IMG/VR virus record: IMGVR_UViG_2778261176_000018
Span: 1-4,109 of that record
DNA length: 4,109 bases
Strand: one strand, 5' to 3'
Origin: a virus
Lineage: Duplodnaviria > Heunggongvirae > Uroviricota > Caudoviricetes
Position 1 is the first letter of the stretch. Each line of letters begins with the position of its first letter. The notes below the pieces were generated by a model. The model saw only the letters and a program-made list of their open reading frames with translations, did not search any database and was not told where the DNA came from. Below are positions 352 through 1,429 of the stretch, piece by piece. The position numbers were made by a program, and so were the translations under genes.

Positions 352-833
352 CTGGACATGCAGCAATCCTCGACATGTGCTGTGGCAGTCGCATGTTCTG
401 GTTCGATAAGAAGGACGACCGGGCGATATTTAGCGATATCAGAAAGGAAGAGCACACATTGTGTGATGGACGACGGCTGATAATTAGCCCTGACCTGATA
501 GCAGATTTTCGTGCATTACCATTTGCAGACGCATCGTTTCCGGTTGTTGTATTCGACCCTCCGCATATTGAGCGTGTTGGTGATAACGCTTGGATGGGAA
601 AGAAATATGGACGGCTGAATAAAGATACCTGGCGTGATGATTTGCGGCAGGGATTTAAAGAAGCCTTTCGTGTGTTGTGGCCATACGGCGTTCTGATTTT
701 TAAATGGAATGAAACGCAAATACCTGTTCGCCAGATATTGGCACTGACCGACAGAAAGCCTGTTATCGGTCAACGAACAGGAAAGGGTGACAAGACCCAC
801 TGGATTATTTTTATGAAGGAGGGCAACCAGTGA
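348..833 (+). CDS. putative SAM-dependent methyltransferase (amino-methyltransferase class, DPPH motif), probable phage orphan DNA methyltransferase
   Basis: GTG start at 348 preceded by AAGGAGG (335-341), overlapping the upstream stop. Translation contains a motif-I-like segment (AAILDMCCGSRMF) followed about 60 aa later by VVVFDPPH, a (D/N)PP(Y/F/H) catalytic motif typical of N6-adenine/N4-cytosine or RsmD-like methyltransferases. The next in-frame ATG (375) would cut into motif I, so the GTG start is preferred. Target (DNA or RNA) cannot be decided from sequence. Confidence 0.6.
   Translation: MTGHAAILDMCCGSRMFWFDKKDDRAIFSDIRKEEHTLCDGRRLIISPDLIADFRALPFADASFPVVVFDPPHIERVGDNAWMGKKYGRLNKDTWRDDLRQGFKEAFRVLWPYGVLIFKWNETQIPVRQILALTDRKPVIGQRTGKGDKTHWIIFMKEGNQ
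815..833 (+). repeat. gene-junction direct repeat, copy 2 (GAAGGAGGGCAACCAGTGA)
   Basis: Second copy of the junction, sharing GGCAACCAGTGA (822-833) with 340-351. It again encodes GNQ-stop, an AAGGAGG-type RBS and a GTG start. The two copies exactly bracket the methyltransferase CDS. Confidence 0.8.
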
Positions 834-1429
834 GCAAGATTGATTATCAGGCGCTACGGGAACGTTATTCACCTAAGCCAGTACCTGAATGCTCTGTTTG
901 TGGCGAGGAAATGTCAATACAGCGTATATCTGGAGCACATGTCGTTTATGCCTGCTCCAGTTATGGTGGTGATGGAGATTTCAAAATTGGTCGAACACTT
1001 GCCGACGAGCATTATGAAAAATCACGCGTAACAGTAGTTGATGACAGTGACCCTGATGTGATTGCACTACTGGACGAGCTGGAGGCAGCAAAATCAAAAC
1101 TCAACGAGCAGCGTGAGTATTACGAGGGCGTTATCTCGGATGGAAGTAAGCGCATTGCTGAACTGGAAGCACGGGAAATAAAACCAGCCAAAGGTGAAGT
1201 TCTTGTCGTTGTTTCTGGTTTTACTGGTTGCGGAAAAAGCGCCATTGCCGGGGAAATAGAAATCGCGATGAAGGCTATTGGTGTACCGGTTCAGTGGACT
1301 AATAGCGATGCGGAAAAGCGCATGACAGGAGCTGACTGGCTGGCAGCGATTGAGATGTACAAACCAACAGTGCGCATCGTGGAAGTTAATGTGCCACGCG
1401 CCGCTGGCATTCGCATCAAAGGAGAGTGA
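830..1429 (+). CDS. ead/Ea22-like prophage protein with a C-terminal Walker-A (P-loop) motif
   Basis: GTG start at 830 preceded by AAGGAGGG (816-823), overlapping the upstream stop (GTGA). The N-terminus MSKIDYQALRE resembles the conserved N-terminus of ead/Ea22-like proteins as I recall it. A central coiled-coil-like stretch (LLDELEAAKSKLNEQREYYEG) is present. The C-terminal part carries GFTGCGKS, matching the Walker A consensus GxxxxGK[ST]. Confidence 0.6.
   Translation: MSKIDYQALRERYSPKPVPECSVCGEEMSIQRISGAHVVYACSSYGGDGDFKIGRTLADEHYEKSRVTVVDDSDPDVIALLDELEAAKSKLNEQREYYEGVISDGSKRIAELEAREIKPAKGEVLVVVSGFTGCGKSAIAGEIEIAMKAIGVPVQWTNSDAEKRMTGADWLAAIEMYKPTVRIVEVNVPRAAGIRIKGE

Follow-up and report, generated by a model that had tools for sequence, protein, structure and literature searches.

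We analyzed a stretch of 4,109 nucleotides (positions 1 to 4,109 of IMG/VR virus record IMGVR_UViG_2778261176_000018; hereafter the window) that represents the early-left accessory region of an enterobacterial prophage. On its plus strand lies a gene for a protein of 199 residues related to Ea22, an early-left-operon accessory protein of lambdoid phages (Table 1). The gene is an Ea22 allele, and its product has a variable domain at the N-terminus, a stalk formed by a coiled coil and a C-terminal head that can be exchanged. The head contains a module of about 65 residues with a Walker A motif, which is our main subject. An earlier reading of the sequence alone (the original prediction) had proposed that an Ea22-like protein is joined here to a C-terminal P-loop segment like those of small kinases or NTPases.

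The Pfam model Ead_Ea22 (PF13935) matches residues 2-88 of the protein along model positions 1-80 of 139 (E 4.4e-24; 86.1 bits against a cut-off of 27), and homologues carry the annotation 'ead/Ea22-like family protein'. The family phrog_250 covers the whole protein (E 1.8e-41) and phrog_11761, which has 110 positions, covers residues 106-199, that is, the module plus the linker. The gene lies close to an excisionase-type gene, with genes for a DUF551 protein, a 3'-5' exonuclease and a PrtN/excisionase-type protein downstream. In published work, Ea22 proteins vary at the N-terminus, contain a coiled coil and differ among phages in their C-terminal domains (PMC10834534, PMC8614690, PMC7093339), and full-length lambda Ea22 is tetrameric and was described with a coiled-coil domain (PMC10834534). 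Ea22 favours lysogeny and is among the least understood early proteins of lambda and Shiga-toxin phages (PMC7093339, PMC10834534).

The module consists of a hydrophobic run, the Walker A motif, a helix, a second hydrophobic run, two short helices and a last hydrophobic run that ends in glutamate; the peptide VVVSGFTGCGKSAIAG is present in the Ea22-type protein. The Walker A pattern [AG]x4GK[ST] is present as GFTGCGKS and, at the sequence level, a Walker-B-type pattern is present as V181-R-I-V-E185, a hydrophobic run ending in Glu. [AG]x4GK[ST] occurs once in the six-frame translation of the window; 0.015 occurrences are expected by chance per 199 residues, and 433 of 20,000 shuffles of the protein (2.2%) carry the motif. 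Because a protein of this size has a chance of about 2% to contain it, the motif alone is not significant. A chance motif could be ruled out, since the Walker A sequence is invariant across the module family: GxxxxGK[ST] is kept in 419 of the 428 relatives fetched, and the longer pattern GxxGxGKSAxxGEIEI in 412 of them. The nine exceptions to the shorter pattern are four proteins with alanine for the first glycine (which the consensus allows), four single-residue variants and one truncated protein.

When redundancy was removed at 70% identity, the residues G130, G133, G135, K136, S137, A138, G141, I143, G151, E162 and E185 are fully conserved, and an independent alignment of 29 module sequences gave the same list, except that G130 is only nearly invariant. 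E162 is also invariant in our alignments A1, A2, A3 and A5, and E185 in A1 and A5; V181 is nearly invariant. Throughout the main family the segments GEIEI (residues 141-145) and EKxxTxADW (162-170) do not vary, but they are lost in the members from jumbo phages, where GEIEI is replaced by GIICD or GIIAE. The conserved core survives in these jumbo-phage members, which are about 40% identical to the query, and the sole invariant polar residues across the most divergent members are K136, S137, E162 and E185. Thus, as GEIEI and TxADW are lost and these four residues kept, the deepest constraint lies on the residues of the presumed phosphate site. GEIEI is probably a conserved surface.

The module is widespread in phages. 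A HMMER search over 1.84 billion cluster representatives (50% identity clusters) found it in 451 clusters at E <= 0.001 and in 356 at E <= 1e-10; among the matches listed, query residues of about 8-80 were aligned at either end of proteins of 110-623 residues. A profile search of 90% identity clusters found the module in 3,416. When the last 87 residues were used as a tblastn query against phage genomes, we found the module in Escherichia coli phages including phiV10, D6 and JL22, in a Yersinia phage, at the N-terminus of gp37 of Burkholderia phage BcepC6B (57% identity) and internally in 346-residue proteins of Ralstonia and Burkholderia jumbo phages (about 40% identity). Species-representative genomes added Serratia, Mangrovibacter, Methyloversatilis, Pandoraea, Sulfuriferula, Methylobacterium, Mesorhizobium and Acetobacteraceae, and across alpha-, beta- and gamma-proteobacterial phages the module is conserved at about 50% identity. 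Among 5,426 complete E. coli genomes, 365 carry DNA of the module, and 81 of the 395 occurrences are on plasmid records. The large phages D6 and JL22 (about 91-115 kb) carry the module, and RCS47 matches the adjacent segment of the Ea22 stalk; the occurrences on plasmids and in large phages indicate that the cassette circulates beyond lambdoid prophages.

The module also exists on its own. Starting from the BcepC6B module, we retrieved 64 proteins, and a large share of them have only 68-90 residues, for example P0125 with 68 residues (MKEITVTVSGPVGVGKSALCGEIEILCRALGLEVAWGDSHSEKNMTHADWTSALEMYGPTVRIVEVVA). C-terminal, N-terminal, internal and stand-alone positions have all been seen. These short members are real genes with their own ATG overlapping the upstream stop codon. 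In Achromobacter prophages the stand-alone gene lies between recombination genes and a methyltransferase/xis/int group, and in Mu-like phages it lies in the early region. Ten module-bearing relatives of 260-623 residues have no Pfam domain and in ten Ea22-type relatives Ead_Ea22 is the only one; our Pfam scan did not confirm an old DUF550 note of the phiV10 record. At the Achromobacter loci L005-L007, the gene 5' of the stand-alone module ends at locus position 6004 and overlaps the module ATG by 4 nucleotides. It encodes a mosaic protein of 207-363 residues in three versions with differing N-terminal parts and an identical C-terminal end, and together with the module looks like an unfused counterpart of the scaffold-plus-module fusions.

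We compared the gene with lambda ea22 and found that the C-terminal slot of Ea22 is exchanged between conserved DNA flanks (Table 1). By BLASTP the protein matches lambda Ea22 (NP_040612) with an E-value of 3e-19 and near identity over ELEAAKSKLNEQREYYEGVISDGSKRIAELE; the coiled-coil segments are near-identical (residues 82-115 here, 70-104 in lambda), and the last eight residues, AGIRIKGE, are identical. The downstream flank encodes ...GIRIKGE plus the stop codon, and within it lies AAAGGAGAG, which is the ribosome-binding site for the open reading frame (ORF) that follows. Between the flanks BLASTP detected no protein similarity to lambda Ea22 residues 105-174 (approximate limits), and at the DNA level the best local match of window positions 1180-1400 to lambda ea22 was 8 nucleotides across about 220. 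Megablast against phages showed further breakpoints at gene nucleotides 247 and about 319-331, which indicates that the end of the stalk travels with the module separately from the N-terminal domain. The N-terminal part belongs to a different lineage, because phage relatives share only nucleotides 247-600 of the gene. Several cassettes alternate at the C-terminus of Ea22, and the module is one of them.

These results uphold part of the original prediction. Its Ea22-like N-terminus was recovered by Pfam, its Walker A motif is the invariant GFTGCGKS, and the RIVE of the stretch it had named as possibly Walker-B-like (RIVEV) ends in the invariant E185. Its suggestion of an Ea22-type scaffold joined to a separable module agrees with the N-terminal, internal and stand-alone copies, and the comparison with Ea22 homologues that it had proposed identified the P-loop segment as a variable C-terminal module, in the place of which lambda has an unrelated domain; conservation of the motif, which it had named as a check, was found in the relatives described above.

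In the N-terminal domain the full-length AlphaFold model places a helix at residues 6-13 and strands at 29-34 and 37-41, with low confidence (predicted local distance difference test score, pLDDT, of 41-69). Residues 21-43 (nucleotides 890-958), around the predicted beta-hairpin of residues 29-41, contain a C21xxC24...C42 arrangement and weakly match a recombinase zinc beta-ribbon domain (E 0.14); they may form a small zinc-ribbon-like element. At the other end the protein terminates in ...IKGE, that is, in the K/R-G-E tripeptide of Ea22 proteins, a motif left unexplained when reported (PMC7093339). Here the codons of K-G-E plus the stop (AAAGGAGAGTGA) double as the ribosome-binding site of the next ORF, and this role may explain the motif.

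We next considered whether the module is a P-loop NTPase domain. AlphaFold models of the C-terminal 87 residues and of the full-length protein have pLDDT values of 75.2 and 68.0, respectively, and both contain a helix starting at K136 (pLDDT about 87-90); DSSP assigned no strand to the VLVVV run that precedes the Walker A motif. Structure searches with these models gave no significant P-loop match and no structural neighbour, and the top rows from the PDB in Foldseek were oxidoreductases using flavin adenine dinucleotide or nicotinamide adenine dinucleotide (phosphate) (FAD/NAD(P)) at non-significant E-values of 3.9-9 and template modelling (TM) scores of about 0.25. No single domain with a central sheet of five or more strands in a three-layer alpha/beta arrangement was found. 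In profile comparisons, nearly all of the 60 PDB matches listed were P-loop proteins aligned on the strand-loop-helix unit. The best single Pfam match was nSTAND_NTPase5 (E 1.2e-5; 25.6 bits against a cut-off of 34), and among 73 members of the family weak sub-threshold matches were to AAA_16 (36), nSTAND_NTPase5 (35) and APS_kinase (26). Canonical P-loop domains have roughly 150 residues or more and a five-stranded fold; the module could accommodate no more than three strands and two or three helices. Going by its sequence, we describe the module as a P-loop-like mini-domain and do not class it as a P-loop NTPase domain.

The plus-strand genes of the window are tightly coupled, and two minus-strand genes converge on them. 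Two E. coli chromosomes carry regions about 97% identical to the window that cover 93% and 88% of it, and parts of it are present in 4,181 of the 5,426 complete E. coli genomes. The GTG start codon of the Ea22-type gene at 830 overlaps the TGA stop codon (831-833) of the upstream methyltransferase gene, and the Shine-Dalgarno-like sequence before it belongs to a junction, GGAGG(G)CAACCAGTGA, that is repeated at 334-351. Near-identical junctions combining a ribosome-binding site with a start/stop overlap lie between successive plus-strand genes at 334-351, 815-833, 1417-1433 and 2131-2149, with the sequences AAAGGAGGCAACCAGTGA and GAAGGAGGGCAACCAGTGA; owing to the shared sequences both upstream proteins end in ...GGNQ or ...EGNQ. 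The gene junctions are likely to be recombination boundaries. In the 116-residue protein at the start of the window, the C-terminal 80 residues match positions 180-239 of phrog_368, its C-terminal part, and the N-terminal part of phrog_368 matches the N-terminus of the Ea22-type protein; the 116-residue protein seems to combine a further Ea22-type C-terminal cassette with a different N-terminus, which adds to the signs of domain shuffling in the operon.

The hairpin between the convergent PrtN-type and membrane-protein genes has a 12-bp stem with T runs on both strands and is likely a bidirectional terminator. On the minus strand, the gene for a Panacea/SocA-domain protein is followed by that for a putative membrane protein of 182 residues, the C-terminal part of which has weak sub-threshold matches to membrane families. 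The pair resembles a locus of PanA antitoxin and membrane toxin; the PADLOC scan matched neither of the two. A DNA methyltransferase gene adjoins the module here as well as in Achromobacter, but on opposite sides, and genes of this kind are frequent in such regions.

Table 1. Features of the window, with coordinates in nucleotides (aa, amino acids; nt, nucleotides).
Feature	Coordinates	Strand	Basis or remark
Ea22-type protein, 199 aa plus stop	830-1429	+	ORF list, Pfam, PHROG
Shine-Dalgarno-like AAGGAGG, 7 nt upstream of GTG	816-822	+	Read from sequence
Variable N-terminal domain, aa 1-74	830-1051	+	Ead_Ea22 match; AlphaFold
Long helix, Ea22 coiled-coil stalk, aa 75-114	1052-1171	+	AlphaFold pLDDT 79-93
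Mini P-loop module, aa 122-186, about 65 aa	1193-1387	+	phrog_11761, clusters, conservation
Walker A GFTGCGKS, aa 130-137	1217-1240	+	
GEIEI, aa 141-145, helix after P-loop	1250-1264	+	Family-specific signature
E162, acidic, after second hydrophobic run	1313-1315	+	Invariant
VRIVE, aa 181-185, Walker-B-like hydrophobic run ending in E185	1370-1384	+	
Upstream DNA flank of cassette	1076-1168	+	85/93 identical to lambda ea22 nt 211-303
Downstream DNA flank of cassette	1402-1429	+	28/28 identical to 3' end of lambda ea22
116-aa protein	1-351	+	ORF list
S-adenosylmethionine-dependent DNA methyltransferase	348-833	+	
49-aa ORF, ATG at 1431	1431-1580	+	
DUF551 protein	1584-2150	+	
Rv2179c-like 3'-5' exonuclease	2147-2722	+	
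PrtN/excisionase-type gene	2759-3031	+	
Hairpin, likely terminator	3043-3070		3' of PrtN/excisionase-type gene
Putative membrane protein, 182 aa	3613-3065	-	
Panacea/SocA-domain protein	4109-3636	-	Pfam E 6e-18

The explanation we favour, with about even confidence, is that the module is an effector head, carried on the coiled-coil stalk of Ea22, that binds phosphate or a nucleotide in a manner dependent on oligomers. Its sequence suggests the order beta - P-loop - alpha - beta - alpha - beta, and provides good evidence for a candidate phosphate site, because the most deeply conserved polar residues are the lysine and serine of Walker A, the Walker-B-like E185 and a second acidic residue, E162. 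We infer ligand binding, dependence on oligomers, any hydrolysis and the biological target as follows. K136 and S137 would bind, with E185 and E162, the phosphates of an ATP/GTP-type nucleotide or of another phospho-ligand, and Mg2+ would probably take part. Since a module this short cannot supply the five strands of the canonical P-loop fold by itself, it would act as a homo-oligomer to build a stable sheet and a complete site. The Ea22 coiled coil would gather the heads in the window protein, and stand-alone forms would self-associate. The GEIEI/EKxxTxADW surface would provide a subunit contact or bind a host target during early infection or in the lysis-lysogeny decision. A bolder version of this explanation, which we advance tentatively and think somewhat doubtful, is that the module is a natural and functional P-loop unit of minimal size, with 65-70 residues in the order beta-(P-loop)-alpha-beta-alpha-beta. 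Only its oligomers would bind nucleotides and perhaps hydrolyse them, neighbouring subunits completing the active sites or sheets, and phages would plug it as an effector head into Ea22 stalks and into other scaffolds.

Several results weigh against the favoured explanation. Neither AlphaFold model has a beta-strand in the module, so that of the P-loop fold expected in the original prediction the helix from K136 was recovered, and a beta-sheet or a significant structural match was not. No curated P-loop model from Pfam or NCBIfam reached its threshold with the protein, its C-terminal part or its relatives, which is also how the domain-level search suggested with that prediction turned out. The PDB profile matches have E-values of at least 0.004 and cover only the first 20-40 residues of the module. 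Module neighbours differ among the E. coli, Achromobacter, Mu-like, BcepC6B, jumbo-phage and Yersinia-phage contexts, and no conserved one hints at a substrate or at completion of the fold. Our literature search found no paper on natural mini P-loop domains, and to our knowledge no natural P-loop protein is this small.

The same observations bear on other readings. The missing P-loop fold in AlphaFold and structure searches, together with the conserved and probably exposed GEIEI and TxADW segments outside any canonical NTPase motif, would suit a protein-protein interaction or structural head that binds a host protein and keeps GxxGxGKS for folding only, with no nucleotide or phosphate bound. 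We consider such a head unlikely, though worth bearing in mind: the jumbo-phage members lose GEIEI and TxADW but keep K136, S137, E162 and E185, and folding alone can hardly account for an invariant Lys-Ser after a glycine-rich loop behind a hydrophobic strand. These two residues also speak against a Rossmann-like beta-alpha-beta binder (G133xG135xxA138) of NAD, FAD or an ADP-ribose-type ligand in place of a nucleoside triphosphate (NTP), as the Rossmann fingerprint does not require K136 and S137. The sequence does fit GxGxxA, a helix, G151, a hydrophobic strand and D/N158, and the top Foldseek rows mentioned above are oxidoreductases of that kind; however, those rows are far from significance, position 158 varies (D, N, G, R, E), and all sequence-profile matches are P-loop proteins and none Rossmann proteins, which leaves this reading highly improbable.

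The profile matches could alternatively point to a decoy, that is, a truncated N-terminal half of a P-loop NTPase (strand, Walker A and helix, as far as Walker B) which, displayed in several copies, would assemble with a host or defence NTPase, such as a STAND-type immune protein, and poison it. nSTAND_NTPase5 is the best Pfam match and is found in almost half of the members, some alignments span 60-70 module residues, and the gene lies in accessory early regions, where anti-defence genes are common. Yet these matches are sub-threshold and common to many unrelated P-loop families, PADLOC found no defence-model match for the window protein or a stand-alone member, and conservation of about 50% identity between phages of three proteobacterial classes argues against mimicry of one fast-evolving defence protein; we judge a decoy improbable. 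The likeness to small P-loop kinases or NTPases put forward in the original prediction would make the C-terminal region a complete conventional domain of that type, with the Walker A motif, the Walker-B-like hhhhE and weak matches to APS kinase, gluconokinase and deoxynucleoside kinase in its favour. It founders on size: only about 65 residues are conserved, the 13-residue tail beyond them is common to lambda Ea22, which has no P-loop, and stand-alone members have 68-75 residues (68 in the smallest) against roughly 150 or more for a conventional domain. There is no space for a lid, a substrate-binding region or a fourth or fifth strand, no family model matches at threshold, and the domain length contradicts this reading, to which we give hardly any credence.

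The gene itself is common and as a rule annotated 'ead/Ea22-like family protein', and mosaic C-terminal domains of Ea22 are already published. In the literature and databases searched we found no description of this C-terminal variant as a distinct, very widespread Walker-A mini-domain, of its free-standing 68-residue members or of its place in the flank-defined slot of the lambda C-terminal domain, and the Ea22 papers cited above (PMC10834534, PMC8614690, PMC7093339) do not mention a Walker motif, ATP or a P-loop. The invariant loop of the phosphate-binding type offers a concrete biochemical handle on Ea22, through ligand binding and K136A or E185A mutants, and the finding defines a large unannotated domain family independently of Ea22. 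No canonical P-loop protein comes near the small size of the free-standing members, which bear on the minimum size of a working P-loop unit; if the oligomeric minimal P-loop is real, the module would be the smallest Walker-type domain for nucleotide binding in nature and would parallel, in living phages, the designed 'P-loop prototypes'.

Compared with known systems, the window protein shares with lambda Ea22 the Pfam family and the place in the early-left operon upstream of an excisionase-type gene. Its N-terminal domain is unlike that of lambda Ea22, which lacks the C21xxC24...C42 element, and its module is unrelated to the lambda C-terminal domain, a dimeric mixed alpha-beta fold without a Walker motif as solved by nuclear magnetic resonance (PMC10834534). 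The groups phrog_250, phrog_11761 and phrog_31825 are unannotated clustering units of unknown function, which neither name nor explain the motif. With P-loop NTPases (AAA_16, nSTAND_NTPase5 and APS_kinase in Pfam; ABC, UvrA, UreG and Ras proteins in the PDB) the module shares the hydrophobic run, [AG]x4GK[ST], a helix predicted to follow it and an acidic residue ending a later hydrophobic run; it differs in its length of about 65 residues, the lack of a predicted beta-sheet and the GEIEI and EKxxTxADW segments, which are exclusive to the module family. The designed minimal P-loop prototypes (Tawfik laboratory; PDB 6c2u; bioRxiv 10.1101/2020.07.30.228619) are likewise very short beta-(P-loop)-alpha units that depend on oligomers, and designed polypeptides of 40 residues with this arrangement respond to NTPs and polyphosphate and act on DNA via oligomeric forms. 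Both 6c2u, a 'phosphate-loop protein' (E 0.017), and the de novo ATPase PL2x4_2 (PDB 9jix; E 0.0089 over 43 residues) were among the top PDB profile matches of the module. These designs come from the laboratory, whereas the module family is natural and shows strong purifying constraint among the phages of alpha-, beta- and gamma-proteobacteria.

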